Source of the DNA: Oligoflexia bacterium | GTDB taxonomy: Bacteria; Bdellovibrionota; Bdellovibrionia; JABDDW01 | DNA: 64,000 nt | Reading direction: 5' to 3' | Assembly (NCBI GenBank): GCA_034439615.1 | Contig: JAWXAT010000003.1 | Location: 51,973 to 115,972 of the forward strand | Shown: positions 42,894 to 63,531 of the stretch, one piece after another | How positions within the stretch are numbered: the first letter of the stretch is position 1 | Layout: every line of letters begins with the position of its first letter | Notes under the pieces: model-generated | What the model was told of the DNA's origin: nothing | Databases searched by the model: none | The model's input: only the letters and a program-made list of their open reading frames with translations | Made by a program: the position numbers and the translations under genes

Positions 42894-43067
42894 TATGCCA
42901 AAAATGAACTCGCTTATAAGCTGTAGGCATGGCTAGGTGCAGGTTTAAGGGGTGAATAAGATCCAGAAATTGTCACTAAAAGTGAGAAAAACTGTCATTT
43001 TCTATGGGTGACTTGCCATTGGGTTTTACGCGTGATATTTGCTTTCATCTGAGGTTTGGGGGATATA

Positions 43068-49438: not shown

Positions 49439-50131
49439 ATGAATGCGCAATACAACTTTATTTTGGTGAGCCGAAAGACGGGCGATGCTTTCAAAATTCG
49501 CGATGAAATAGAGCGTAATCGACTTTACTCTGTTGAAATGATCGAAACCGCACCGGCTGCTTTGGGTCGTCTCGCAAAAGGGGACATCAGCTGTATGGTT
49601 TTTAATTTTGATAGTTTTAATCAACAAAAAATCAGCGTCATCACTAATCTTCGCGATATGGGTTATACATTTCCCGTCATCATTTTTGCCGCATTCGTTC
49701 AAAAAGAAGCCTATGATATTGTGAAAAAAATGGATCGCGTTATTATTATCGAATGCCCTTTTGAAGCCAAAGATGTTTGGGGAATATGTCAAAAAATAGT
49801 TCAAGGTGCAAAAGTTAATCAGCGTATTTTTCGTCGATTCTATACAAATCAAAAAGCGGTACTTGAAAAAACAATCAGCGGTGAAATCATCGCGGGCGCA
49901 ATTTATAATCTCAGCCATGGTGGAGCCTATATGGAGTTGCACTCAGGACGCGTGAGACGCGGTGAGATTCTCAAGGTTACAATTCAATTAAATAAAATTT
50001 CAAAAGCTTATAATGTCGACGCGCAAGTTGTCTGGACTACTCCACAGGGTTTTTGGCTGGGAAAGCCTGCTATTGGCTTAAAATTCATGAAGGCAGGCGA
50101 TGTCTACAGAAATTTACTCGACAAGCTGTAA
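49439..50131 (+). CDS. PilZ-domain protein with a degenerate N-terminal receiver-like domain (paralog 1 of 3)
   Basis: PilZ motifs QRIFRRF (RxxxR) and YNLSHGGAY (NxSxGG). The N-terminal ~120 aa have CheY-like alternation but lack the acidic pocket (LVSRKTGD, CPF in place of KPF). Confidence 0.75.
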   Translation: MNAQYNFILVSRKTGDAFKIRDEIERNRLYSVEMIETAPAALGRLAKGDISCMVFNFDSFNQQKISVITNLRDMGYTFPVIIFAAFVQKEAYDIVKKMDRVIIIECPFEAKDVWGICQKIVQGAKVNQRIFRRFYTNQKAVLEKTISGEIIAGAIYNLSHGGAYMELHSGRVRRGEILKVTIQLNKISKAYNVDAQVVWTTPQGFWLGKPAIGLKFMKAGDVYRNLLDKL

Positions 50132-50170
50132 CAGAGTTTAAAGTTCGAATCGTTTTGATTGGGGATATAA

Positions 50171-50866
50171 ATGTCAGATAAATCAAAATATACATTTCTT
50201 CTGTTCAGACAAGAATCAGAAGGCTGTGACCAAATTGTTGCAGAGATTGGTGCAAATCCACTATGTCAAATAATTCAAGTCGATACGATTCGTGAAATTT
50301 TTGATCATGCGGCGGATGGTAGTGCGAATTCATTAATTTTTAATTTAAAAATTTTTGACTCCAATACACTTAAGGTTATTCAAAAAATAAAATCAATCAC
50401 ACCAACACTTTCTACAACAATCGTTACAGCGCAGAAAATTCAAAATATCGACATGCAAAAATTAAAGAAATACAATGAGATTGTCATTATAGATAAGCCT
50501 GTAAAGCATGGTGATTTTGCATTGCTGACGGAGAGACTTGCAGAAGGCAAGCCAATATACTTTCGCGAACATAAACGATTTAATACGATTCAAATAGCCC
50601 ATCTTGAGAAACTGACCTCTAATGAACAATATGAAGGTAGTGTTTATACTATTAGTAAGGGCGGCGCCTATATTGAACTTACCAAGGGTAATGTCAAACC
50701 AGGAGAGCTCTTTCGCGTCTCTATTAAATTAGATCAATTATCAAAAGCGCATAATTTTAATGCTGAAGTGATTTGGACTGCACCAAAAGTGCGGCAAGGG
50801 CTGGCAGTTGGCCTGAAATTTATTAATGAAGAGCAAGTCTATAGAACTTTGCTTGAGAAGGTATAA
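50171..50866 (+). CDS. PilZ-domain protein with a degenerate N-terminal receiver-like domain (paralog 2 of 3)
   Basis: REHKRF (RxxxR) and YTISKGGAY (xxSxGG). C-terminal GLKFINEEQVYRTLLEKV is shared with the other paralogs. Confidence 0.75.
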   Translation: MSDKSKYTFLLFRQESEGCDQIVAEIGANPLCQIIQVDTIREIFDHAADGSANSLIFNLKIFDSNTLKVIQKIKSITPTLSTTIVTAQKIQNIDMQKLKKYNEIVIIDKPVKHGDFALLTERLAEGKPIYFREHKRFNTIQIAHLEKLTSNEQYEGSVYTISKGGAYIELTKGNVKPGELFRVSIKLDQLSKAHNFNAEVIWTAPKVRQGLAVGLKFINEEQVYRTLLEKV

Positions 50867-50869
50867 AAT

Positions 50870-51571
50870 ATGAGTAAGAGCGGACGTCAACAGTATTTAC
50901 TAATTAGTCATGTCGAAGAAATCGGTTCCGAAATAGAAAGTGCGCTGACAACTGGTCGTGCATTCACTTTGCATCGTGTGGCGAGTCTCAGTGAGGCGCT
51001 TCAAAAACTATCAGATGGTGAAATTAAATGTGTTATTTTTAGTATTCCTGTTTTTCATCAGAAAAGTGTCAAATTTATATCTAAACTTCGTGATATTTAT
51101 CGAGAGATGCCAATTATTATCGTATCAGGAAAAATTCAGAGAGAGGCGTTTGATAGCGCAACTGAAATTAAGCGTGTTGTTATTTTAGAGCAATCATTCG
51201 TAAAAACTGAACTTCTGGCAATATGCGAAAAAGTAGCAAAAGGCCACGAAATCTATCAGCGTAAAACCAAACGATTCTCAACTGACCAGATGGTTGATTT
51301 AGAGCGGATGCTCACTGGCGAAGTAATGAAGGGTTTTTTATTTAATCTTAGCCAAGGTGGTGCATTCATTAACATCGAGAGAGGTGTTATAGTGCCCGGG
51401 GATATTCTAAAAATGAATGTTAAACTCGATAAGTTGGATAAATCACATCTTGTTTTTGCAAAAGTAATATGGGTGTTACAACAAGGTTTTGGATTAAATA
51501 AACCAGGTGCAGGTTTGAAATTCATGAAGGCTGAAGAGGTTTATAGTAGTCTTTTAGATACCGTTAAATAG
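50870..51571 (+). CDS. PilZ-domain protein with a degenerate N-terminal receiver-like domain (paralog 3 of 3)
   Basis: RKTKRF (RxxxR) and FNLSQGGAF (NxSxGG). C-terminal GLKFMKAEEVY. Only 3 nt separate it from paralog 2. Confidence 0.75.
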   Translation: MSKSGRQQYLLISHVEEIGSEIESALTTGRAFTLHRVASLSEALQKLSDGEIKCVIFSIPVFHQKSVKFISKLRDIYREMPIIIVSGKIQREAFDSATEIKRVVILEQSFVKTELLAICEKVAKGHEIYQRKTKRFSTDQMVDLERMLTGEVMKGFLFNLSQGGAFINIERGVIVPGDILKMNVKLDKLDKSHLVFAKVIWVLQQGFGLNKPGAGLKFMKAEEVYSSLLDTVK

Positions 51572-52508
51572 ACGGTTCGTGTTGCTTGAGGCTTAGTTCC
51601 TCAATTTGAATAGTGACGTGTTCAATATTAAATCGCTTTTTAAGCATTTCTCTAATTTCACATAAAAGTTCATGTCTTGATTCACCAACAGCAACAACGT
51701 GTACGCTGAGACTCACCATTCCGGATGTAATACTCCAAACATGCAGGTCATGTACCTCTGTGATGCGCGGAATTTTACTTATAGCATCTTGAATTTCATC
51801 GCTATCGAGATGCAGTGGTGTGCCTTCAAGAATTACGTGTGCGGTATCTAAAATAAGTCTAAAAGATGATGCGATAATAATAAGTGCAATGATAACACTC
51901 ACAATGGGATCAGCTTTAGTCCAGCCATAAAAATATATTAATAGACCTGCGATCATTGCTCCTAGTGAACCTAGGGCGTCAGCTAAAACATGAAACAAGG
52001 CGCCACGCATATTGGGATGTGCGTGATTTCCGTGAGTTAAAAGCCATGCACCAACAAGATTAAAAATAAGGCCGCCTGTTGAAATCCAAAACATTTCCAC
52101 TGATTTGATTTCTACAGGATTATTAAAACGATCCCAAGCTCCCCACATAATCACACATGAGAGGAGCACTAAAAAAATACCATTGATGAAAGCTGCTAGT
52201 ATCTCTAGGCGTAAAAAACCATAAGTACGATGAGCCGTGGCTGGTTTAGAACTCATCATGAAAGCAAAGAGACTTAAACTTAAAGCCGCTGTATCAGTGA
52301 GCATGTGAACAGCATCTGAAATAAGGGCTAATGAATTTGTGTAAAACCCCCCAAATGCCTCGGCTATCATGAATAAGAAGGTGAGGGCTATGACCCACTT
52401 TAGTTGCCGTATGTTTTTTGAGTTATCTAAGCCATGAGAGTGACTCCCATGCATATGGGGGTGTTGATGATCGTGATGATGTTCATGGTCATGATGCGTA
52501 GTGCCCAT
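51564..52508 (-). CDS. Cation diffusion facilitator family transporter (CzcD/ZitB-like) with a His-rich N-terminus
   Basis: MGTTHHDHEHHHDHQHPHMHGSHSHG is a His-rich metal-binding tail. Six TM helices. HxxxD motifs (HMLTD, HVLAD). Confidence 0.85.
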   Translation of the reverse strand: MGTTHHDHEHHHDHQHPHMHGSHSHGLDNSKNIRQLKWVIALTFLFMIAEAFGGFYTNSLALISDAVHMLTDTAALSLSLFAFMMSSKPATAHRTYGFLRLEILAAFINGIFLVLLSCVIMWGAWDRFNNPVEIKSVEMFWISTGGLIFNLVGAWLLTHGNHAHPNMRGALFHVLADALGSLGAMIAGLLIYFYGWTKADPIVSVIIALIIIASSFRLILDTAHVILEGTPLHLDSDEIQDAISKIPRITEVHDLHVWSITSGMVSLSVHVVAVGESRHELLCEIREMLKKRFNIEHVTIQIEELSLKQHEPSI

Positions 52509-52564
52509 AATAAAATAGCTATTCTAGAAATGCTGCCTTGTCACGAAAACTTTCATAGTACAAA

Positions 52565-53623
52565 ATGGCGCTCATGATCAAAAAAACGAGTAAAACTAAA
52601 ATCAGGCTCACACAATCCGTTTCTTGCGCGGGTTGAGCCGCTAAACTGAGCCCAGCGTTGCTGCGGCAAGCAGTTAAAGGTCTAAAACAGCCGGCTGATC
52701 CCAGACTTCTTGTTGGGTTCGATAAAGCCGACGATGCAGGTGTGTATCTAATTTCTCCTGAACTTGCCTTGATTCAAACCGTTGATTTTTTTACTCCTAT
52801 TGTTGATGATCCGATTTGGTTTGGGCGAATTGCTGCGGCCAATTCTTTAAGCGATGTTTACGCCATGGGTGGAAAGCCTTTAACCGCACTGAATGTATAT
52901 TGTGTGCCTGAAGATCTTGATCCAAAAGTCATTGGTCAAATTCTTCAAGGTGGGATCGAAAAAATGACTGAAGCAAAATGCGCACTAGTCGGTGGGCATT
53001 CAGTGAAAGATCTTGAGTTAAAATACGGATTATCGGTTACGGGAACCATTCACCCTGGACGTATTTTTTCAAATGACAAAGCCCTTGTAGGGCAAGCATT
53101 GGTACTTACAAAAAAACTAGGCACAGGAATTATTACAACCGCAGCAAAGTTTGAAGATTGTCCCAAAAAACTTCTGAAAGAAGCCATTGAACAAATGGCA
53201 AGGCTCAATGAGCGAGCCTGTAATGCCATGATAAAGACAGATGCCACCTCATGCACAGATATTACGGGTTTTGGATTTTTGGGACATCTTGCTGAGATGA
53301 CGCGCGCAAGTCAGGTGAAAGCTAAAATTTATTCTAAGAAAATTCCATATTTCAAAGGGCTTGAAAAGTTAATCGCAGATGAGTACGTCACTCGGGGTGA
53401 TAAAACAAATCGTGAGTACGCAAATAATGTTGTATTTAAAAATGTCGAAATGTTTATGCAAAGTATACTTTTTGACCCGCAGACTAGCGGCGGTCTTTTA
53501 ATTTCAATGTCTAAAAGTAATGTAGAAAAATTTCAACTTGAGATGAAAAAGGCAGGTCAACAGTCTTGGGTCGTTGGTGAAATCACGGCTAAAGATCGTA
53601 AGGGATCGATCGAAGTAATATGA
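52565..53623 (+). CDS. selD: Selenide, water dikinase (selenophosphate synthetase) with an in-frame TGA (52634-52636) at the catalytic Cys17 position; probable selenocysteine
   Basis: The track ORF (52658..) lacks the N-terminal motif. Extending the same frame upstream gives MALMIKKTSKTKIRLTQSVSCAG-[TGA]-AAKLSPALL..., colinear with E. coli SIRLTQYSHGAGC(17)GCKISPKVL, with TGA at Cys17. Downstream motifs DDAGVY and FGRIAAANSLSDVYAMGG are present. Start at ATG 52565 or 52574. Confidence 0.8.
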
Positions 53624-54288
53624 TTGAAACTTTTTATTTAGATCGCCCAAAATCTGCTAATGCCCTTGATCTCGCTACTGCTAAACAAATTTCATTAAAA
53701 ATTAAGAATTGTACAGGGCTTGTCATTGCCTCAAAAAATTCAAAAGTTTTTTGCTCTGGTGGCGATCTTAAAGCTTATTCAAAAATGAAAACAAAAAATG
53801 AAGGTATAAAAGTAAATCGCGAGATTCGAAAAACACTTGATGGGTTTCAAAAAGCCCCCGTTATAATAGTCGCAGCCGTTGAGGGTATATGTATTGGAGG
53901 AGGCTGTGAGTTGGCTTTAGCCGCTGATCGTATAGTGGCAAGTTCCAGTGCGCGTTTTGCCTTTAAACAAGTTTTACTTTCATTATCCCCTGGATGGGGC
54001 GGAGCACAGAGATTGTTAAATCGTGTCAGCGCTTCCATTGCCTTTGATTGGCTTACGTCAGGTCGCTGGGTGAGTGCGCAAGAAGCATTTCGTTGTGGTT
54101 TGATCGATGAGATCACGTCACCTGGTACTGTTGAAGAAAAAGCACATGAATTTATATTAGAACGTGCCTTCGTGACGCCAGAGTTGATTTTAAAAATAAA
54201 AGAAATTGTAGCGAATCCATCTAAAGAAGAGAAGATTTTTGAAAGTCTTTGGTTTTCAAAAAACCATCAAACCACATTAAAGCGGTAA
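53620..54288 (+). CDS. Enoyl-CoA hydratase/isomerase (crotonase) family protein
   Basis: VFCSGGDLKAY...ICIGGGCELALAADRIVA are the crotonase oxyanion-hole motifs. Overlaps the selD stop. Confidence 0.8.
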   Translation: MIETFYLDRPKSANALDLATAKQISLKIKNCTGLVIASKNSKVFCSGGDLKAYSKMKTKNEGIKVNREIRKTLDGFQKAPVIIVAAVEGICIGGGCELALAADRIVASSSARFAFKQVLLSLSPGWGGAQRLLNRVSASIAFDWLTSGRWVSAQEAFRCGLIDEITSPGTVEEKAHEFILERAFVTPELILKIKEIVANPSKEEKIFESLWFSKNHQTTLKR

Positions 54289-54295
54289 AATTTAA

Positions 54296-57200
54296 TTATT
54301 TTAAAGTAGCTGCTGGCAGGCCATTTGTGAGTAGTAACACACAACCATCACCTATTTGCTTAACTCCTGGTACAGAAACAAGGGGAGTTGTCACAGTCGC
54401 GATTGTATCAACGGCAGCTTTTGCAAAGGTAATATCACCCGCGAAGGGTCTGAGCATAAGTCGTGAAAAAGCACGTGTTTTAATTTCAGGTAGAGTTTCA
54501 GTTGCGGGGACGCCAATTGTAAGCATGTTTTGAAGTAATTGGCCTGTGACATTTTCCCAAGTTCTGTATGCAAGATTGTATTTAAATCTGTCTTTGCCAA
54601 TTCTTCGGTTAAAGTATTCTTGAACCGTTGGATGTGCTCTGAGCTCTTCTTTGATGTCTTTGAGTCTGTAGCCAGCTGCTAATTCAAAGGCTTGTTCAGT
54701 TTGAAATTGTAATCCACCTAGTGGAAGCCCGAAGCTTGTTGAATAGCTAGTAATATAACTATCAATGTCAAATCGCTTAAGTAAACCCAAGCTTATAGTT
54801 AAGTGTGTGGTAAAAGCTGCGGGCATATTGGCCCAAATCAATTTGTTGTAATAACTCCAAGCCTTTAAAAGCGTATTATCAGGATTTTTAACTAGCTGAT
54901 GTTTGTACCATTCAAAATAAGTCATCTCGCGTTCATGCCTATCTTGATTAAAAATAATTCTACCTTGTTGGTCATGGATTTTTTTAGGCTTTACAGAAAT
55001 GGTGAGTTCTTCTTTTGTAGGGACTTTTCCGAATTGACCTTCATGCATTTCATCTTGTTGAATTTTAAGCCAAACATCCGAGAGCACACCAGAAATTACT
55101 GCATAAGTGTAACCACTAAAAAATACCATTCGAGACAAATAGTACCACGAGGTGGGGCTGTGAATGGAGTCTTGGATAGGTCTTAAAATGGGATCCGTAA
55201 CCCCTGCCAACAAAAGGAAAGTGAAAAAAAGTTCTTGGGGCTTATCTACAATGTTACCCGCAATCATAGACCGTACTGCGCGCGCCATGGCTTGGGGGTT
55301 ATTAATTTGTCGTTCAACAACTTGCATTCTTGCTACTTGGCGATTATTTAAAGGGTTAAGTTGTCGATTCAAAAAATCGGGATCAACTCTGTGTACGTAT
55401 TTACGAAAAAGATTCGTGGCTGAGAGTTTGGTTTCATTTTCAGTTCTGATTTTAGCTTCTGTAAGTAGCTCTGGAGTTATAACTTGCTCGACATATCTCT
55501 GAGCTACTGATGCATCTAGTTGCAATTCGTTTTTGTAAGGTAATGTAATATTTTTGAGTGTCTCTAAGTTTAGATTTGCATTTTGGGGCACAACTCCATG
55601 TTTTGAAACTAAATCTTGAAGATAGAGTTCAGATGCTCGCTCTACAACAAGATTGAAATGGTTTTCAAAAAATATTTTATTTTGCTCGGTAAATTTATTG
55701 ATTTTTTTATCATAGATATTAGCAATGCCTTCTTTTTTGAAGAAATCATGAAGATCGTTACTTGTATTCATGTGGTTGACGAGGGCTTGGAAAGATTTTT
55801 TAAATGCATGTTCGTAAAGGACCTTCTCGACATTGATAAATTGAGTTTCCCAGGCATCTACTTGGTGGCGATAATCTGCTTCATAAATATCTTCAAAACG
55901 ATTTTTCATCCCACCATTAATTTTGTTGGGTATTACTCCGCGAGTAGCTCTGGCGTAAAGCTTGGGATAAATTATCATGCCAATGAGGGCTTTAGGCTTC
56001 CAAATAAATGAACGTAACGCAAACCAATTATTCCAAATGCGCGTGTAGGTGCGCCCGGAGTTTGTAAATGAGCAATAGCTATAAGTAAAATGTTTAATCG
56101 CTTGAAAAAGAGTGCTGATCTGTCGATCTGATTTTTGGTCAAGTTGTTGAGTGCTTGGAGTTTTGCCAATAGCTTTTAGCATGCGATAATAAAATCCGCC
56201 CTCTCGCTGAGCTTGTTCTAATTCACGTACTTGTTCTTCTGCTTCTGCGTTTTGTTCAGCAGTGAATTCGAGTTCTTTGTCTTTTCCACTTTGTTTTGCA
56301 TGTGAGGTTGCCAGAGCTTCTAGATATGTTTTTTCTTGGGAATTTTGTCTTTTTATAAAAGCTGTTTTAAGAGCACCTAACCAACTTACTTCTGTGTTTT
56401 TGAATTGTGAGATTCCAATTTTGCGTAAGTCTTTAAAAAGAAGATACGAGTTTACAATCAAATGAGGAATTCCCAAGGTCATATAAAGTGTAGTGATAAT
56501 GGCGCCAAGGCCGATACCAAATCTGCTGATTTTGTCAGGTGCCAAATAAGCATTGTAGAAATTTGAAGGGTTAAGGCCAGCAAAAGTTTCCATGAAGGCT
56601 GTCGATGTAAGTCTTGATCCATCTATGGCCCAATTCATGATTGATCGTGTGAGATCTGTTGATAGATAAAAAAGATGAGCCATTTGTTCAGGAAACACAA
56701 TGCCCATGGCAGTGCCTGTGACGATGGCTCCTGCGATTTGAACATTGGGATGATTTGCAATTCTCAGTATACCTTCATTCAACGCCGCTGTTCGGCTAGC
56801 TTTGCTGTGGGGGCTAAATGCAGAAGCTATGAGTGCTAAGCCTTGAATAATTTTAGGCGCGCCATTGGGCTGAGGCAAAGTCATGCGTGCCCAAAATTGA
56901 TGAAGTTTTGAAAGTAGCCTTTTTTCTGCTTCGATATTTGCGCTGATATTTTTTGCAGTTTTTTCGATAAAGTCTTGGTGCATGAGTTTATCGGAATCAA
57001 CAGCGTTAGACTGATCTTTCTTTAGACCCTTAAGACCCTTAGCAAATTCTAAAAGCTTTGCTTCTGAACCGGCAATGTCTTGCATTTGTTGTTGAAAATC
57101 TTTGCCTTTAAGTTCTACAGCGCGCATGAGGTATTCTTGTAAGCCATCACCAAGTGGTTGCATTTGTGTTAATGCTTTTGGATCAAGCATATTGACATTG

Positions 57201-57946
57201 ATGTTGTAGGCAGATTGTTGGATGAGTGACATCTCATTAAGATGTTCTTTGCCAATTACAACTTGATTAATATGAAGTTGGTTATTCTTTATATCGAGAT
57301 TATTTAATCGATTTCCAAACTGAACGGGAATTTTAAAAACCGGTGGGTTCACTCTGCCAAGAATTGGATCATACGATTTAAGATCAATAAATGAAATCGA
57401 TTGCACACCAGAGGGCGTGAGATTGTGTTTTTCTACAAAAACTAGGTAATCACCAAAAACTGCAAAACCAATGACGGGCATACGAAAGTCATAGAGTAGT
57501 TTTCCTTGATAATGAATTTGCAGTTTTGATTCATTCGAACTTAAGAAGGTAGGTTTAAATCTTTTTGAATGTGCTGAGAGAACTTTTTGAGTGTTTGTTG
57601 AATCGAAAGCGGCATATGTAAGTGCTGAGTAATCGATAAAATGAGCTTTTGGGTTCTCGTGTGAAATAATGTCGAGCAATCTCCAACGATCAAGGGGGCT
57701 ATTGATCGCAAACCCGTCAAGTGTTTGGCGAAGATGATCAACTTCAGCTTTTTGCTCAGTACGTAAATTAAAACCGGGTACTAAGAGTGTCGGGGTTGTA
57801 TTGGTGACACCACTGGTAGCGATCACTTGTAAAACTTCAATTCCAGGCTCTAAGATATTATCTTGTGCGCTTGCCGGGCTTAACAACAACGGGTTAAGGG
57901 TGAGTGATAAGCAAATCGCAATGTGAATGAACTTTGCTAACGCCAA
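54296..57946 (-). CDS. Large (1216 aa) hypothetical secreted/membrane protein
   Basis: Signal peptide MALAKFIHIAICLSLTLNPLLLSPASA. Several internal hydrophobic segments. No recognisable domain. Confidence 0.6.
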   Translation of the reverse strand: MALAKFIHIAICLSLTLNPLLLSPASAQDNILEPGIEVLQVIATSGVTNTTPTLLVPGFNLRTEQKAEVDHLRQTLDGFAINSPLDRWRLLDIISHENPKAHFIDYSALTYAAFDSTNTQKVLSAHSKRFKPTFLSSNESKLQIHYQGKLLYDFRMPVIGFAVFGDYLVFVEKHNLTPSGVQSISFIDLKSYDPILGRVNPPVFKIPVQFGNRLNNLDIKNNQLHINQVVIGKEHLNEMSLIQQSAYNINVNMLDPKALTQMQPLGDGLQEYLMRAVELKGKDFQQQMQDIAGSEAKLLEFAKGLKGLKKDQSNAVDSDKLMHQDFIEKTAKNISANIEAEKRLLSKLHQFWARMTLPQPNGAPKIIQGLALIASAFSPHSKASRTAALNEGILRIANHPNVQIAGAIVTGTAMGIVFPEQMAHLFYLSTDLTRSIMNWAIDGSRLTSTAFMETFAGLNPSNFYNAYLAPDKISRFGIGLGAIITTLYMTLGIPHLIVNSYLLFKDLRKIGISQFKNTEVSWLGALKTAFIKRQNSQEKTYLEALATSHAKQSGKDKELEFTAEQNAEAEEQVRELEQAQREGGFYYRMLKAIGKTPSTQQLDQKSDRQISTLFQAIKHFTYSYCSFTNSGRTYTRIWNNWFALRSFIWKPKALIGMIIYPKLYARATRGVIPNKINGGMKNRFEDIYEADYRHQVDAWETQFINVEKVLYEHAFKKSFQALVNHMNTSNDLHDFFKKEGIANIYDKKINKFTEQNKIFFENHFNLVVERASELYLQDLVSKHGVVPQNANLNLETLKNITLPYKNELQLDASVAQRYVEQVITPELLTEAKIRTENETKLSATNLFRKYVHRVDPDFLNRQLNPLNNRQVARMQVVERQINNPQAMARAVRSMIAGNIVDKPQELFFTFLLLAGVTDPILRPIQDSIHSPTSWYYLSRMVFFSGYTYAVISGVLSDVWLKIQQDEMHEGQFGKVPTKEELTISVKPKKIHDQQGRIIFNQDRHEREMTYFEWYKHQLVKNPDNTLLKAWSYYNKLIWANMPAAFTTHLTISLGLLKRFDIDSYITSYSTSFGLPLGGLQFQTEQAFELAAGYRLKDIKEELRAHPTVQEYFNRRIGKDRFKYNLAYRTWENVTGQLLQNMLTIGVPATETLPEIKTRAFSRLMLRPFAGDITFAKAAVDTIATVTTPLVSVPGVKQIGDGCVLLLTNGLPAATLK

Positions 57947-58178: not shown

Positions 58179-61100
58179 ATGTTAAAAATGAAAAACAAAC
58201 TCTCAAGCCTTATGACTTTTTTTTCGTGGATTATAATTTTTCAACTAGCCCTTGGCAGCACACTCGTCGATGTAGCTAAAGCACAAGAAGCCACGCAAGT
58301 GCTGACACAAAGCATAGTTACTAATCAAGATGCTCGAATGGCTATTGCTGATGCAGTTGTTGACCCTGCGATTTCAGCTATTGCAGCTGATACAACTTTT
58401 CCTCGAGAGTTAGATCTTAGCTCAAATGATCCTATCGTTGATCAAGATCCATTTTTTCAAAATGCTCAAAGTTGGGGGCAAATCACGGGCCAAGTATCTG
58501 GTGAATTAGCATTTTCAAATGATGGCCAAGTCTCACAAATCAAACTTCCGTTTCAAAATAAAGTTTGGAAACTAAAAGCACCGATTCACCCGATTTTTGC
58601 AACCAGTGATTATGTTTTCTTCGCAGCTAATGCGGGGAGCGATATTTTCTCGGCCTCTTCAAATGACGGTGCTGATTTTGGCGAGGGAATATTCTATGTT
58701 CCGTATAACGAACTCTTAGCTTCAAGTGCACAAGAAGAAAAAATTCCTGTTTACTTTTTTCCTATGCCTGGCACGGGTTGGCAAGCCACAGCAAAAGCGG
58801 ATGTTTTAGTAACTGAAATTCCTCAGCACGATATTGTTGTATTCACAGATACCCAAGGCGCTCCCTTGCCTGTGAAAGTTGAGGATCTTAAATCTATAGC
58901 TAAAGTTGAATCTGTAAACTTTATGATGGCTCAAAGCATGGCTATGCAAGCGGCTATTGATAAACTTAAGGCTAATAAGAGCCAAATTGAATCTGTGCGA
59001 CAAAACTTTATTAATAATCTACAAACACTTAGTAAAGCCGCTCTAAAAGAAGATGAAAAATCATTTTCACGAGCACACGAATCTATCGCGAATAGTTTTG
59101 GACAGGTTTTAACTTCAATGAAATCTGTTTTAGGAACAACGAAGCTCACTTTGCCTCGCGGGAGTACCGCGGGATTCGGGATGCTCTTCACGGGATTTGA
59201 TTTAGACAAATCAAATCAAAGCACTATCTTTGCAAACTATCAGCAAACCAAATTAGAAAAATGGCGAACTGCTTTTCTTCAGGTTTTAGGTATTAACACT
59301 GCTCATGCAGATGCCGAACTCACAAGAGTTCTTATTGGCGTTAGTATTGTACTCGCAAAATGCGCATTTATTTTTTCTGTTGGTACAGCTCTGCGATATA
59401 CGGTTTTAAGACAAAAAATTAAAGAGCGAATGGGTGTTAGCGGTATTGGGAAAAATGGGTTTCAAGTAAACCTCACTGTTTTTGCACAATCACTAACGTT
59501 TGTTGCGCAATTTCCCTATGTGACATCTACCAATACTATTGAGTACATTATGGATCGCGCCGGAACTGCTGAAAACGGCCGCATCAGAAAACTCTTTAAC
59601 GCAACATTTGGTTACTCGCGAAAAATCAATAATAAAACTCCAGTCAATCATAAGACGCTGATTTACGGTGTTGGTATTCTTGGCTTTGTTGACACAGCCC
59701 TTGTTGCCTTTCAGCAGTACATGGTCATTCCGTGGATTGTTTCTGGTCTTGTTGTGATTTTTCCTGGTCTTGCAAGTCGCGCTGAAGCTGCCTGGGGAAT
59801 GGGCGGCAATATGGCTTTATATAATCTCATAGCAGTCATCGGTAATCTTACGGCTTACATTTCTTCAGGTGCTTATGCCTATGCCAATCAAGTTCAAGAA
59901 ATTTCAACAAATGATGCATTAAGAATTGTCGCTGATGAAATGCGTAAAGAAGGTGTGAATCCCGATGATCCAATAAACAAAAGACTCTTTGATACGCGTG
60001 TGAAAAAAATGGTTCGCGCATCACTCAATAGTAAGGGTTTGCCAGATGAAAGAGCTTTTCTCTTTGATGCCAATTCTTTTTATCAAAGTATTCAAGGCTT
60101 TTTTGGCTATAAGCCAACAGATAAATCAAATCCTGAGGAATATTATGCAGTTTTAAGACAAGGGCTAGTCTTAAGAGCCCTAAATAATGCAATTGTTGTT
60201 GCACAAGATACAAAAAATGAACGTGCACTTGTTGTTTTAAAAGGAGCCAAAGAAGATTTTAGTCTTGTTGAGAAATTTAAATCTGATCCATCAGCATTTT
60301 TGACTCCCACAAAAATTAAAGAAGTGGCTGAGCGTTATCGTAATGTACGACAAGAGCTTACTTCCTTTACTTTTACAGGTGGCCCATCTGATCGAATAAC
60401 AAAGCTCGGTAATTGGCGTAATAAAGGGTCAAATGCAGGAGTGCGGTCAGCGGCACAGATTTATCGAAAAGAATTTTTTAGTTTAATGGAAATAAAAGAA
60501 GTTGCTGTGTCTGTCGGTACTCAAACTGCTCAAGATATAAGCCCCGAAGCATTAGACCCGTCACTCAGAGAAGGTCGGTTTGCACGTTGGCAATTAAAAA
60601 GAGCTATTACAAAAGCTAATGAAAAATTTGTCGCTCAGTTTAAAGTAGATCCCATTGAACTTTTTGGTGAGTCTGGTGATGCAGCTCAAGCAAATTTACG
60701 CACGCAATGGGAAAAACTCTATCGCAGTGAATTGGTAAGTTTAGTTGGTTTGCGTCCTGACTCAACTGAAACACAGTTAATGGCAGATGTTGAGGCTGAA
60801 ACTGAGAGTTTATTTAAAGTGCGACTTGAGTCAAATGCCTCACTTAAAACATATTTGGCTACACTATCTGCTTATGAACGCGCACGGGTAACAGAAATTT
60901 ATAGAACAGATGTTTTTGTTCAAAAATATGTCGATGCCACTATTAAAACCGAAAAAGTTCCACCGCACTCACCTGCACAACCGGGTATATTTCAAGGTTT
61001 GAGACAAACACAACTAGTAAGGCAAAATAAGGTTCTGACATCGGGGTTGCGGTTTATGGAGGGATTGTTTTCAGACACGCGCTATCAGCGGGGTTTAAAA

Positions 61101-61493
61101 AACCTACTCTTTCGTACAATTCCACTAGTAGAAGATATGGTTGCCGGAAATCTTCGTGAAATCAGAAGAACGCCCGTAGAAGGTACGTTTGGATATCTTT
61201 ATAATAGGGTTATTTGGGCAGCAGTTCTTCCCTATAAACAGTGGGGAGTTCAGAGATTGTTTCGTGGTTCGACTATTTCTGGTCCATGGGCCACTACAAA
61301 TCGTATTCTCACAAAAATAGGGTTTAAGCCTGGTGAGAATGCAAAAGGAATGTTGTCTTACGGAGTTATCGGAAGCTTTGCCACGTTTACTGGGGGTATA
61401 TTCTTTGGACTTTTCAGTGAAGATATCTTGCGGGGTGTGACAAAGGCGATTGATTCTTGCTCTGCGGTACTATCGAAGATAATCCCTTTTTAA
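58179..61493 (+). CDS. Large (1104 aa) hypothetical secreted/membrane protein
   Basis: Signal peptide MLKMKNKLSSLMTFFSWIIIFQLALG. Internal and C-terminal hydrophobic segments. Divergent from the 1216-aa gene. No recognisable domain. Confidence 0.6.
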   Translation: MLKMKNKLSSLMTFFSWIIIFQLALGSTLVDVAKAQEATQVLTQSIVTNQDARMAIADAVVDPAISAIAADTTFPRELDLSSNDPIVDQDPFFQNAQSWGQITGQVSGELAFSNDGQVSQIKLPFQNKVWKLKAPIHPIFATSDYVFFAANAGSDIFSASSNDGADFGEGIFYVPYNELLASSAQEEKIPVYFFPMPGTGWQATAKADVLVTEIPQHDIVVFTDTQGAPLPVKVEDLKSIAKVESVNFMMAQSMAMQAAIDKLKANKSQIESVRQNFINNLQTLSKAALKEDEKSFSRAHESIANSFGQVLTSMKSVLGTTKLTLPRGSTAGFGMLFTGFDLDKSNQSTIFANYQQTKLEKWRTAFLQVLGINTAHADAELTRVLIGVSIVLAKCAFIFSVGTALRYTVLRQKIKERMGVSGIGKNGFQVNLTVFAQSLTFVAQFPYVTSTNTIEYIMDRAGTAENGRIRKLFNATFGYSRKINNKTPVNHKTLIYGVGILGFVDTALVAFQQYMVIPWIVSGLVVIFPGLASRAEAAWGMGGNMALYNLIAVIGNLTAYISSGAYAYANQVQEISTNDALRIVADEMRKEGVNPDDPINKRLFDTRVKKMVRASLNSKGLPDERAFLFDANSFYQSIQGFFGYKPTDKSNPEEYYAVLRQGLVLRALNNAIVVAQDTKNERALVVLKGAKEDFSLVEKFKSDPSAFLTPTKIKEVAERYRNVRQELTSFTFTGGPSDRITKLGNWRNKGSNAGVRSAAQIYRKEFFSLMEIKEVAVSVGTQTAQDISPEALDPSLREGRFARWQLKRAITKANEKFVAQFKVDPIELFGESGDAAQANLRTQWEKLYRSELVSLVGLRPDSTETQLMADVEAETESLFKVRLESNASLKTYLATLSAYERARVTEIYRTDVFVQKYVDATIKTEKVPPHSPAQPGIFQGLRQTQLVRQNKVLTSGLRFMEGLFSDTRYQRGLKNLLFRTIPLVEDMVAGNLREIRRTPVEGTFGYLYNRVIWAAVLPYKQWGVQRLFRGSTISGPWATTNRILTKIGFKPGENAKGMLSYGVIGSFATFTGGIFFGLFSEDILRGVTKAIDSCSAVLSKIIPF

Positions 61494-61573: not shown

Positions 61574-61807
61574 ATGGCTGATAAAGCAAATAAGTACCCA
61601 CAAAATGTAGCAGGTAAATTCTATGTCGACACGCAGTGCATCTCTTGTGATGCTTGCTGCACTTCAGCGCCCAATAATTTTAAAATGAATGATGAAGAAG
61701 GCCACGCCTATTTATCTGTTCAACCAACCTCACCTGAAGAAGAAACTCAGTGTAAAGAAGCAATGGAAGGTTGCCCGGTTGAGGCTATCGGTAACGACGG
61801 GCCCTAA
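61574..61807 (+). CDS. Small ferredoxin (single [4Fe-4S]/[3Fe-4S] cluster type)
   Basis: CISCDACC...CPVEAI gives the CxxCxxC...CP ligand pattern. 77 aa. Confidence 0.8.
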   Translation: MADKANKYPQNVAGKFYVDTQCISCDACCTSAPNNFKMNDEEGHAYLSVQPTSPEEETQCKEAMEGCPVEAIGNDGP

Positions 61808-63531
61808 TGGATCGTGATAAACTTGCCACTCTTATAAATGAAATTGCCACTTATCTTGATCTTCTTGGTGAAAATCCTTTTAAAATTCGAGCCCATCAAA
61901 ATGCTGTTCGCATCATTGAATCATTTGATGGTGATTTAGAAAAAGCCATCAAGAGTGGAGCCATTGGTGAAGTAAAAGGCATTGGTCCAGCACTTAAAGA
62001 AAAATTCGAAGAGTTTTTAAAATCAGGTGAAATTACTGAGCATAAAAAACTTCAAAAAAAAATCCCTCAAGGTCTCATGGAGATGATTCGTATCCCTGGT
62101 CTCGGGCCAAAAAAGGTGCGCGCAATTTATAACAAACTAAATATCACATCAGTGGGTGAGCTTGAATATGCCTGTAAAGAAAATAGATTAGTAAAACTTG
62201 AGGGCTTTGGTGAAAAAACCCAAGTGAAGATTTTAAAAAACATTGAGTTTGTTAAAAAATATCAAGAATCGTTTCTATACTCCGATGCAGCCCTTGAGGC
62301 TCAAATTTTAGTTGCGGCACTTAAAAGTGTTAAGGGCGTTACTAAAATTGAAGTGGGTGGGTCGTTAAGACGTCGAAAGGAAATCGTACGTGACATCGAT
62401 ATTCTTGTGGCTACGAGTGATCCAAAGTCTGTAACTAAAAAGTTTTCAACACATCCCAGTGTTGAGAGCATCACTGGCAGTGGTGAAACAAAAACAAGTG
62501 TTGTTTTAAAAAATGGAATGGCTTGCGATTTACGAGTTGTTACTGAGCAAGAATTTCCGTTTGCGCTATTGTATTTTACAGGCAGTAAAGAACACAACAC
62601 CGTCATGCGCCAAATTGCCAAAGACAAAGGTTTAAAACTTAATGAGTATGGTTTGTACAAGGGAGAAAAACCAACACCTTGTAAAACAGAAGCAGAAATT
62701 TTTGAAAAACTAGGGCTTGTTTATATTTCACCAGAAATGCGCGAGAATAACGGCGAAATTGAAGCTGCAAAAAAGAAAAGTCTTCCCCAATTAATTGAGC
62801 GCGACCAAATTAGAGGCATATTTCATTGTCATACAACTGATAGTGACGGAACAAATACATTAGAAGAAATGGTCGGGGCTGCCCAAAAACTAGGTTTTGA
62901 ATATATTGGTATCAGTGATCACTCAGCTACTTCAGCTGGATACGCCCATGGAATGAAAAAAGATCGCCTTCTTGAACAATTTAAAGCCATTGAAGCCCTT
63001 CAGAAAAAATTTAAAATTAAAATTTTTAAAGGCATTGAATCAGATATTTTAAGTGATGGTAGCTTAGATTATGAAGATGCTGTGTTAAAGAAATTTGATT
63101 TCATCATCGGAAGTATTCATCAAGGGTTTACATTATCTCAAGATCAAATGACCAAAAGAGTTCTCAAAGCTGTAAAAAATCCCTATTTAGATTTTCTAGG
63201 TCATCCCACGGGGCGTTTACTATTAGCTCGAGAAGCATTTGAAATAAACATGCACACGATTATTGACGAGGCAGCCAAACAGGGTGTCATCATTGAGTTG
63301 AATGCAAACCCACAGCGACTCGACATGGATTGGCGACTTGGTAAATATCTAAAAGAAAAAGGTGGGCGTGTAAGTATTAATCCCGATGCTCATAGTATTG
63401 CAGGTCTTGAAGACGTGGAGTACGGGGTGGGTATCGCGCGTAAGGCTTGGCTGAGTGCTGAAAATATCGTTAACACATTGCCTGCTGATAAAGTACTCGC
63501 TGCACTTCCTCGCGCTCGTCATCTTAAGTAG
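61807..63531 (+). CDS. polX: DNA polymerase/3'-5' exonuclease PolX (Pol X core + PHP domain)
   Basis: N-terminal HhH / Pol-beta-like region (GIGPALKEKF, GLGPKKV) and C-terminal PHP motifs (FHCHTTDSDG, ISDH). 574 aa. Confidence 0.9.
   Translation: MDRDKLATLINEIATYLDLLGENPFKIRAHQNAVRIIESFDGDLEKAIKSGAIGEVKGIGPALKEKFEEFLKSGEITEHKKLQKKIPQGLMEMIRIPGLGPKKVRAIYNKLNITSVGELEYACKENRLVKLEGFGEKTQVKILKNIEFVKKYQESFLYSDAALEAQILVAALKSVKGVTKIEVGGSLRRRKEIVRDIDILVATSDPKSVTKKFSTHPSVESITGSGETKTSVVLKNGMACDLRVVTEQEFPFALLYFTGSKEHNTVMRQIAKDKGLKLNEYGLYKGEKPTPCKTEAEIFEKLGLVYISPEMRENNGEIEAAKKKSLPQLIERDQIRGIFHCHTTDSDGTNTLEEMVGAAQKLGFEYIGISDHSATSAGYAHGMKKDRLLEQFKAIEALQKKFKIKIFKGIESDILSDGSLDYEDAVLKKFDFIIGSIHQGFTLSQDQMTKRVLKAVKNPYLDFLGHPTGRLLLAREAFEINMHTIIDEAAKQGVIIELNANPQRLDMDWRLGKYLKEKGGRVSINPDAHSIAGLEDVEYGVGIARKAWLSAENIVNTLPADKVLAALPRARHLK

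Follow-up and report, generated by a model that had tools for sequence, protein, structure and literature searches.

A selD gene with a probable selenocysteine-encoding TGA in an Oligoflexia bacterium

Genes and features at the selD locus

We analysed a 64-kb stretch of DNA from an Oligoflexia bacterium, called the window below. Its GC content is 40%, and its RpoD is about 67% identical to the RpoD of Bdellovibrio. It covers a housekeeping region; among its genes are dnaG, rpoD, those of the rhamnose pathway, citrate synthase and the RNase P RNA. The selD gene lies between a divergent cation-efflux (CDF) gene and an enoyl-CoA hydratase-like (ECH) gene (Table 1).

Table 1. Features of the selD locus, in positions of the window
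Feature	Position	Strand	Remarks
Cation-efflux (CDF) gene, divergent	51564..52508	-	Cation_efflux and ZT_dimer domains; clade-conserved neighbour, no functional role implied
Full-length selD CDS (predicted)	52565..53623	+	352 codons and stop; residue 24 is the probable Sec-TGA
In-frame TGA, probably read as selenocysteine	52634..52636	+	Equivalent of E. coli SelD Cys17
Extended hairpin with lower stem	52644..52675	+	-13.9 kcal/mol; positions 10-43 after the U of the UGA
bSECIS-type core hairpin, GCCCAGC-[GUU]-GCUG(C)GGC	52650..52667	+	Fold, conservation and recoding control
selD as called in the ORF list	52658..53623	+	TTG start
TTG used as start by the ORF caller	52658..52660	+	Internal Leu codon; overlaps the apical loop and the 3' stem (first base)
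Enoyl-CoA hydratase-like (ECH) gene	53620..54288	+	ATG overlaps the selD stop (ATGA, 53620-53623); clade-conserved neighbour

In frame +2, the sequence was open from the ATG of the full-length CDS to the stop codon at 53621-53623, and the only interruption was the TGA. The frame remained open upstream as far as 52559, with a TAG preceding it at 52556-52558, and translation might instead begin at a second ATG, at 52574. The translation reads MALMIKKTSKTKIRLTQSVSCAG, then the TGA, then AAKLSPALLRQ, and the part following the TGA is AAKLSPALLRQAV and onward. A preliminary description of this DNA had reported a frame open to 52559 apart from one TGA, and had given exactly this translation; both statements were borne out. 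The ORF in the ORF list starts at a TTG downstream of the TGA, and the database protein P0001 begins at the same TTG and has 321 aa.

The distance from the start of the CDF gene to the selD ATG was 56 bp. Scanning for promoters and terminators gave no more sites than shuffled sequences did. The CDF protein had a very His-rich N-terminus (MGTTHHDHEHHHDHQHPHMHGSHSH and onward; 52430-52508, minus strand), which is typical of metal-binding tails.

The order of the divergent CDF gene, selD and the ECH gene was kept in clade relatives with Sec forms as well as in those with Cys forms of SelD (L005, L006, L008, L011, L017 and L132-L134). Among the 125 selD loci listed, the adjacency of selD and ECH was confined to the Oligoflexia clade, apart from a weak example in L100, a locus of the sister clade. 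Therefore, synteny is our reading of the adjacency; we found no support for a functional link of selD with the ECH gene.

Two very large ORFs, at 54296-57946 on the minus strand (1216 aa) and 58179-61493 on the plus strand (1104 aa), had no Pfam match and were located between the ECH-like gene and a PolX-like gene (61807-63531). In three relatives, L008 (the locus from the NCBI Oligoflexia MAG), L132 and L134, the ECH gene is followed within one or two genes by a gene for a 77-aa ferredoxin and by PolX. Because the interval from ECH to PolX is short in these relatives, the two ORFs look like a lineage-specific insertion. Downstream of citrate synthase, three tandem PilZ-domain paralogues of 230-233 aa each were found at 49439-51571; the triplet was present in L008, and one copy was present in L132 and in L134.

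The product of the full reading frame

With the TGA translated as a residue, the 352-aa product matched TIGR00476, the SelD equivalog, with 370.9 bits against a cut-off of 125. It passed NF002098 as well, with 309.2 against a cut-off of 299. Positions 1-309 of the TIGR00476 profile were matched to residues 14-318, so that the match spans the TGA. Pfam domains were in the order of AIRS (PF00586, residues 56-161) and then AIRS_C (PF02769, residues 175-346). The best match among solved structures was SelD of Aquifex aeolicus (2yye/2zod, E 2.4e-74), and E. coli SelD (3u0o) was aligned along 333 residues with E 3.1e-60.

The N-terminal loop had no gaps in the alignments to 2yye/2zod and 3u0o. In the alignment to 3u0o, residue 24, which is encoded by the TGA, was placed on Cys17 of E. 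coli SelD, and K27 on Lys20. In the alignment to 2yye/2zod, residue 24 was placed on the Cys in 'SSGCAAK' of the deposited A. aeolicus SelD sequence. We take Cys17 and Lys20 to be catalytic loop residues of SelD, and the product has the predicted Sec at the former position and Lys at the latter. The Sec of SelD is located in the N-terminal loop and is catalytic (PMC13188914). The full-length homologues closest to the product (P0003, P0004, P0005 and others, with 61-68% identity) have S/A-C-A-G-C-A-A/S-K-L in this region, with a Cys exactly at the TGA; P0003, P0004 and P0005 read SCAG-C-AAKL. In the full-length Cys homologues, the position of the TTG is an internal Leu codon.

The product thus is, as judged from its amino acid sequence, a full-length SelD, and it is predicted to make selenophosphate from selenide with the use of ATP. 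This outcome bears on three points of the preliminary description. It had aligned the loop with E. coli SelD without gaps and put the TGA on Cys17, and the alignment to 3u0o placed residue 24 there. It had proposed aligning the translation through the TGA to SelD families, which yielded the full-length match to TIGR00476 given above. It had also regarded selD as shortened by the ORF caller at the TGA, in agreement with the SelD profile match beginning upstream of that codon.

Conservation of the TGA codon

A TGA at the Cys17-equivalent codon was found in seven distinct relatives of the same Oligoflexia clade, with 58-84% protein identity. For the comparison at the DNA level, we used six close homologues that had been called short (L005, L006, L008, L009, L010 and L011; L007 is a duplicate of L006). 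All six had an in-frame TGA at the same codon, between RLTQSV[SA][CG]AG and A[AS]KLSP. When genome contigs were scanned with this one protein, the matches were limited to four distant loci, L001-L004. Of these, L002-L004 (Acidobacteriota/Dormiibacterota) carried TGA at this codon, and L001 carried Cys.

Metagenomes were scanned with a pattern that accepts TGA, TGC or TGT at the codon and ends at the Lys codon, before any hairpin. The listed scan matches, the window and the loci already at hand gave 128 SelD N-termini. Among these matches listed, the codon was TGA in 99, TGC in 22 and TGT in 7; the Sec form was therefore commoner than the Cys form among the motif-sharing SelD genes listed (99 vs 29).

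We also compared the 10 codons upstream of the TGA in all pairs of the eight Sec-form clade members. There were 150 synonymous differences and 30 non-synonymous differences. This excess of synonymous differences indicates that the supposedly untranslated N-terminus is under purifying selection at the protein level.

Lone in-frame stops commonly arise in MAGs as artefacts, and the gene callers took this TGA as a stop. Therefore, the TGA might be an error of sequencing or assembly, or a recent inactivating mutation that made selD a pseudogene. This is contradicted by the presence of the TGA in the seven relatives and in 99 of the 128 motif-sharing SelD genes among the matches listed, by the purifying selection on the upstream peptide and by the maintenance of a Sec-specific hairpin, which is described below. 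Where the preliminary description had named TGT or TGC at this codon as the result that would speak against Sec, the contig as assembled a second time (Logan SRR6448212, L135), possibly from the same reads, has TGA too. We regard an error or a pseudogene as exceedingly improbable.

Another explanation is that the called gene model is correct, and that the gene starts at the TTG and encodes a SelD-like protein of 321 aa that lacks the catalytic loop at the N-terminus. An ORF with this start does exist, and several databases store such short models (P0001, P0002, P0019 and others). However, the SelD profile is matched from its position 1, upstream of the TGA, and the 10 codons preceding the TGA are conserved at the protein level. 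Moreover, the TTG corresponds to an internal Leu codon of the full-length Cys homologues and sits in the loop of the hairpin. A downstream start is thus hardly credible.

A SECIS-type hairpin downstream of the TGA

A core hairpin begins 13 nt past the UGA, with the apical loop at 52657-52659 and a bulged C at 52664. The spacing between the UGA and the loop was 20 nt (52637-52656). The MFE was about -9.9 kcal/mol for the core alone, of which L013 has the same sequence, and -13.9 kcal/mol when the lower stem AACUG (52644-52648):CAGUU (52671-52675) was included. The published bSECIS model consists of an apical loop of 3-9 nt and an upper stem of 4-16 bp (PMC13188914, Fig. 2A), and also has a G within the first two loop positions, a distance of 16-37 nt between UGA and loop, and an MFE no higher than -7.5 kcal/mol (PMC13188914). 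The core hairpin agreed with the model on all four counts, with its 3-nt GUU loop, 7 bp and one bulge, 20-nt spacing and -9.9 kcal/mol.

Folding of the window sequence by itself was not significant (z -0.63 and -1.29), and Rfam gave no match at the locus, either at the gathering threshold or at E up to 10. The informative controls were the comparative and recoding ones only. In the recoding control, the peptide was fixed, codons were drawn from the window's own usage, and the MFE of positions 10-43 was calculated. The mean of 5000 synonymous recodings was -3.84 +/- 2.33 kcal/mol, compared with -13.9 kcal/mol of the native sequence, and 2 of the 5000 were as good.

For the comparative analysis, 12 clade sequences picked by peptide motif were aligned (alignment A1; positions counted from the U of the UGA). 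The helix 17-23:27-34 was paired in 100% of cells, and pairing fell to 15-71% in controls with slid partners. The loop was GUU, GGU or GGC in all 12 sequences, with G24 invariant. Pair 22-28 was G-C in seven and A-U in five, and pair 21-29 had one G-U; the covariation within the clade is thus that of one pair only, among related sequences. Over all Sec forms among the matches listed, pair 23-27 was GC in 46, CG in 19 and AU in 4. The core hairpin of the window was identical to those of L006, L010 and L013.

The hairpin was specific to the Sec forms. Among the matches listed, the core pairs (20-23:27-30) together with G24 were found in 50 of 90 distinct Sec forms but in 0 of 28 Cys forms (Fisher p = 1.6e-8, which is nominal because the sequences are related). 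When one of three hairpin classes was accepted, 86 of the 89 Sec forms qualified, as did 5 of the 28 Cys forms, again among the matches listed. Within the clade, the eight Sec forms folded at -8 to -14 kcal/mol, whereas four syntenic Cys forms folded at -1 to -4 kcal/mol. In these Cys forms (L017, L132, L133 and L134) the hairpin was absent; they encode a near-identical peptide (KL[SN]P.[LI]LR[QEK]A) with other codons.

The three classes, seen at +15 to +47 after the TGA in Sec-type selD of the metagenome loci L012-L131, differed in the place of the loop. In class 1, the apical loop was at +24-26 and mostly GGA, GUU or GGU. Among the matches listed, class 2 had the loop at +37-39 with GUU or GUG in 21 sequences, and class 3 had it at +20-24 in 22 sequences.

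Several other elements were rejected. We do not count the lower stem, which was paired in 63% of cells across the clade and is particular to the window and L005, among the conserved parts of the hairpin. The preliminary description had pointed to a hairpin ctgc-ggcaa-gcag at 52661-52673 and to a GGTC at 52679-52682 as candidates for the SECIS. Both the ctgc/gcag repeat and the GGTC do occur in the sequence, but they are not conserved and are not the SECIS. The hairpin at 52661-52673 was paired in 75%, with its inner pair broken in 8 of 12 sequences, and 383 of 500 shuffles, a nominal figure, were as good. It also competes with the fully conserved helix by overlapping its 3' arm. The GGTC was not conserved in L006, L008, L009 and L011. 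A SECIS-like fold just after the TGA, as that description had anticipated, is present, but the hairpin at 52650-52667 overlaps the proposed one rather than being equal to it.

Decoding of the UGA

The standard code is used in the window, where TGA terminates 19 of 50 ORFs. No other in-frame TGA was found in the window genes, and a read-through scan gave no second candidate besides selD. A read-through match at 43050 was non-coding sequence upstream of a signal-peptide start and was discarded.

ARAGORN found no tRNA-Sec in the 64-kb window, and no SelA, SelB or SelU domain was found in its 51 ORFs, selD itself counted. Since ARAGORN detected tRNA-SeC beside selD in 10 other loci, the negative result for tRNA-Sec in the window is real. 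A tRNA-SeC was located within a few kb of selD in L021, L027, L038, L044, L049, L050, L069, L078 and L115, which are unrelated metagenome loci; SelD was of the Cys form in L021, L027, L038, L050 and L069.

That the Sec machinery was not found in the 64-kb window would be in keeping with a UGA read through as a residue other than Sec, either by near-cognate suppression (Cys/Trp) or by a reassigned code. Reassignment is excluded by the termination of 19 of the 50 ORFs at TGA and by the lack of any other in-frame TGA in the window genes. Suppression is at odds with a hairpin that has a G-first loop at bSECIS spacing and is lost where the codon is Cys, since SelB-dependent recoding needs such a hairpin and simple suppression does not. 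Non-Sec read-through is therefore very unlikely.

We conclude, with a probability of roughly 90%, that the locus encodes a 352-residue Oligoflexia SelD in which the equivalent of Cys17 is selenocysteine, the UGA being recoded in translation. This conclusion is based on the family match across the TGA, the pairing of Cys and Sec forms at this position, the conservation of the TGA, the selection on the upstream codons and the Sec-specific hairpin. The four other explanations, namely error, downstream start, non-Sec read-through or reassignment, and the relic discussed below, are disfavoured because data on conservation, selection, stop usage or the hairpin contradict each of them; even together they have only a small chance of being right. 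The sequence evidence supports a selD with a Sec-encoding TGA at the Cys17-equivalent codon, and a called ORF that is too short.

According to the established bacterial pathway (PMC13188914, PMC1794560), SelB with GTP and Sec-tRNA(Sec) would bind the hairpin at 52650-52667 and put Sec at the UGA. The Sec-containing SelD product would then make selenophosphate, which SelA would use for making Sec-tRNA(Sec), again by the established pathway (PMC13188914, PMC1794560). Because selenophosphate is required for Sec-tRNA(Sec), SelD would depend on its own pathway. Binding of SelB, actual insertion of Sec, and selA, selB and selC elsewhere in the genome are what we infer from this scheme.

Comparison with known systems

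Sec-containing SelD is known in Haemophilus influenzae, Aquifex aeolicus, many Deltaproteobacteria and Clostridia. The SelD of the window shares with these the TIGR00476 family, the order of AIRS and AIRS_C, the recoded position in the N-terminal loop and a putative SECIS inside the CDS directly downstream of the recoded codon. Its G-U-A-A-K matches the loop 'SSG[C/U]AAK' of A. aeolicus SelD. Unlike the known cases, the host is an Oligoflexia MAG of Bdellovibrionota, and selD in the window does not adjoin selU/ybbB, selA, selB or tRNA-Sec.

With E. coli SelD (3u0o), the window SelD has in common the gap-free N-terminal loop and the Lys20 equivalent, K27. However, Cys17 of E. coli is encoded by TGC without a SECIS, whereas the window has a TGA and a hairpin. 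The loop of E. coli SelD reads G-A-G-C-G-C, whereas in the window a Cys is present three residues before the predicted Sec (C-A-G-U), and Cys19 of E. coli is replaced by Ala.

The SECIS of E. coli fdhF, the prototype of the bacterial element, has G23 and U24 in its loop and a bulged U on the 5' side. In the window, the G and U of the loop come close to this, at +24 and +25 with the U of the UGA as +1, and the bulge in the window hairpin and its relatives is a C or A in the 3' arm of the upper stem. The window hairpin has no similarity in primary sequence to the E. coli elements, and its loop has 3 nt. It agrees with the consensus bSECIS in being an in-CDS stem-loop just past the UGA, with a small loop starting with G-U and an MFE below -7.5 kcal/mol.

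Many genomes and selenoproteomes have SelD among their listed selenoproteins (PMC1794560). By breadth of distribution, Sec-SelD ranks second among the prokaryotic selenoprotein families (PMC13188914), and SelD is among the most abundant selenoproteins of marine metagenomes (PMC9312934). For Bdellovibrio bacteriovorus, the model species of the phylum, selD and ybbB have been reported, without Sec decoding (PMC1273633). Our literature search found no paper linking Oligoflexia to selenoproteins. A Sec-containing SelD is in itself textbook knowledge, and the lineage is mildly new.

Possible replacement of Sec by Cys in the clade

In a neighbour-joining tree of the clade SelD proteins (P0001-P0020), which has no support values, Sec forms and Cys forms were interleaved, with at least four Sec/Cys sister pairs. 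All Sec forms of the clade shared one homologous hairpin. Since Sec and Cys forms are interleaved while the Sec forms have this single hairpin in common, the distribution suggests an ancestral Sec form and repeated replacement of Sec by Cys. Such repeated replacement matches the documented Sec-to-Cys changes, which are known mainly for FdhA and SelD (PMC13188914).

The same interleaving could fit a relic, that is, a lineage that had Sec-SelD until recently and a genome that has lost selA, selB or selC, and with them the expression of the full-length protein. Losses of SelD along with that of the whole trait have been described (PMC1794560), selA, selB and tRNA-Sec are absent from the 64-kb window, and the decoding machinery of this organism is itself predicted. 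However, the TGA, the upstream frame and the hairpin are intact, and the core is identical to those of L006, L010 and L013, showing no visible decay. We consider a relic very unlikely, and a functional Sec-SelD remains the preferred reading.

If the ancestral-Sec scenario is true, independent Sec-to-Cys replacements would have been followed by rapid decay of the SECIS. The syntenic Sec and Cys relatives are a clean natural comparison, in which the SECIS hairpin is either present or erased while the peptide is nearly unchanged. A more speculative idea, which we hold as doubtful, is that SelD is the main or even the sole purpose for which the lineage keeps its Sec apparatus, in a loop that sustains itself; the lineage may also be in the course of abandoning the apparatus.

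Implications for annotation and for the lineage

SelD proteins of the Sec type in this clade were systematically stored in databases as N-terminally truncated entries of 315-327 aa (P0001, P0002, P0007, P0009, P0010, P0012, P0015, P0018 and P0019). P0019 is the truncated NCBI entry 'selenide, water dikinase SelD [Oligoflexia bacterium]'. As a separate observation, the Cys-form selD of L047 (3539 onward) had an in-frame stop 13 codons past the Cys (CAAKIAPGILDKV, then the stop), and is possibly a frameshifted or decayed copy.

The main value of the finding is the correction of the gene model, because the protein as called is without the catalytic N-terminus of SelD. The Oligoflexia genome is a probable Sec decoder, and therefore other TGA-interrupted genes elsewhere in the genome merit re-examination. 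The finding adds one lineage to a well-described selenoprotein family and, if true, would bring Sec decoding into a phylum for whose model species it has been reported as lacking.
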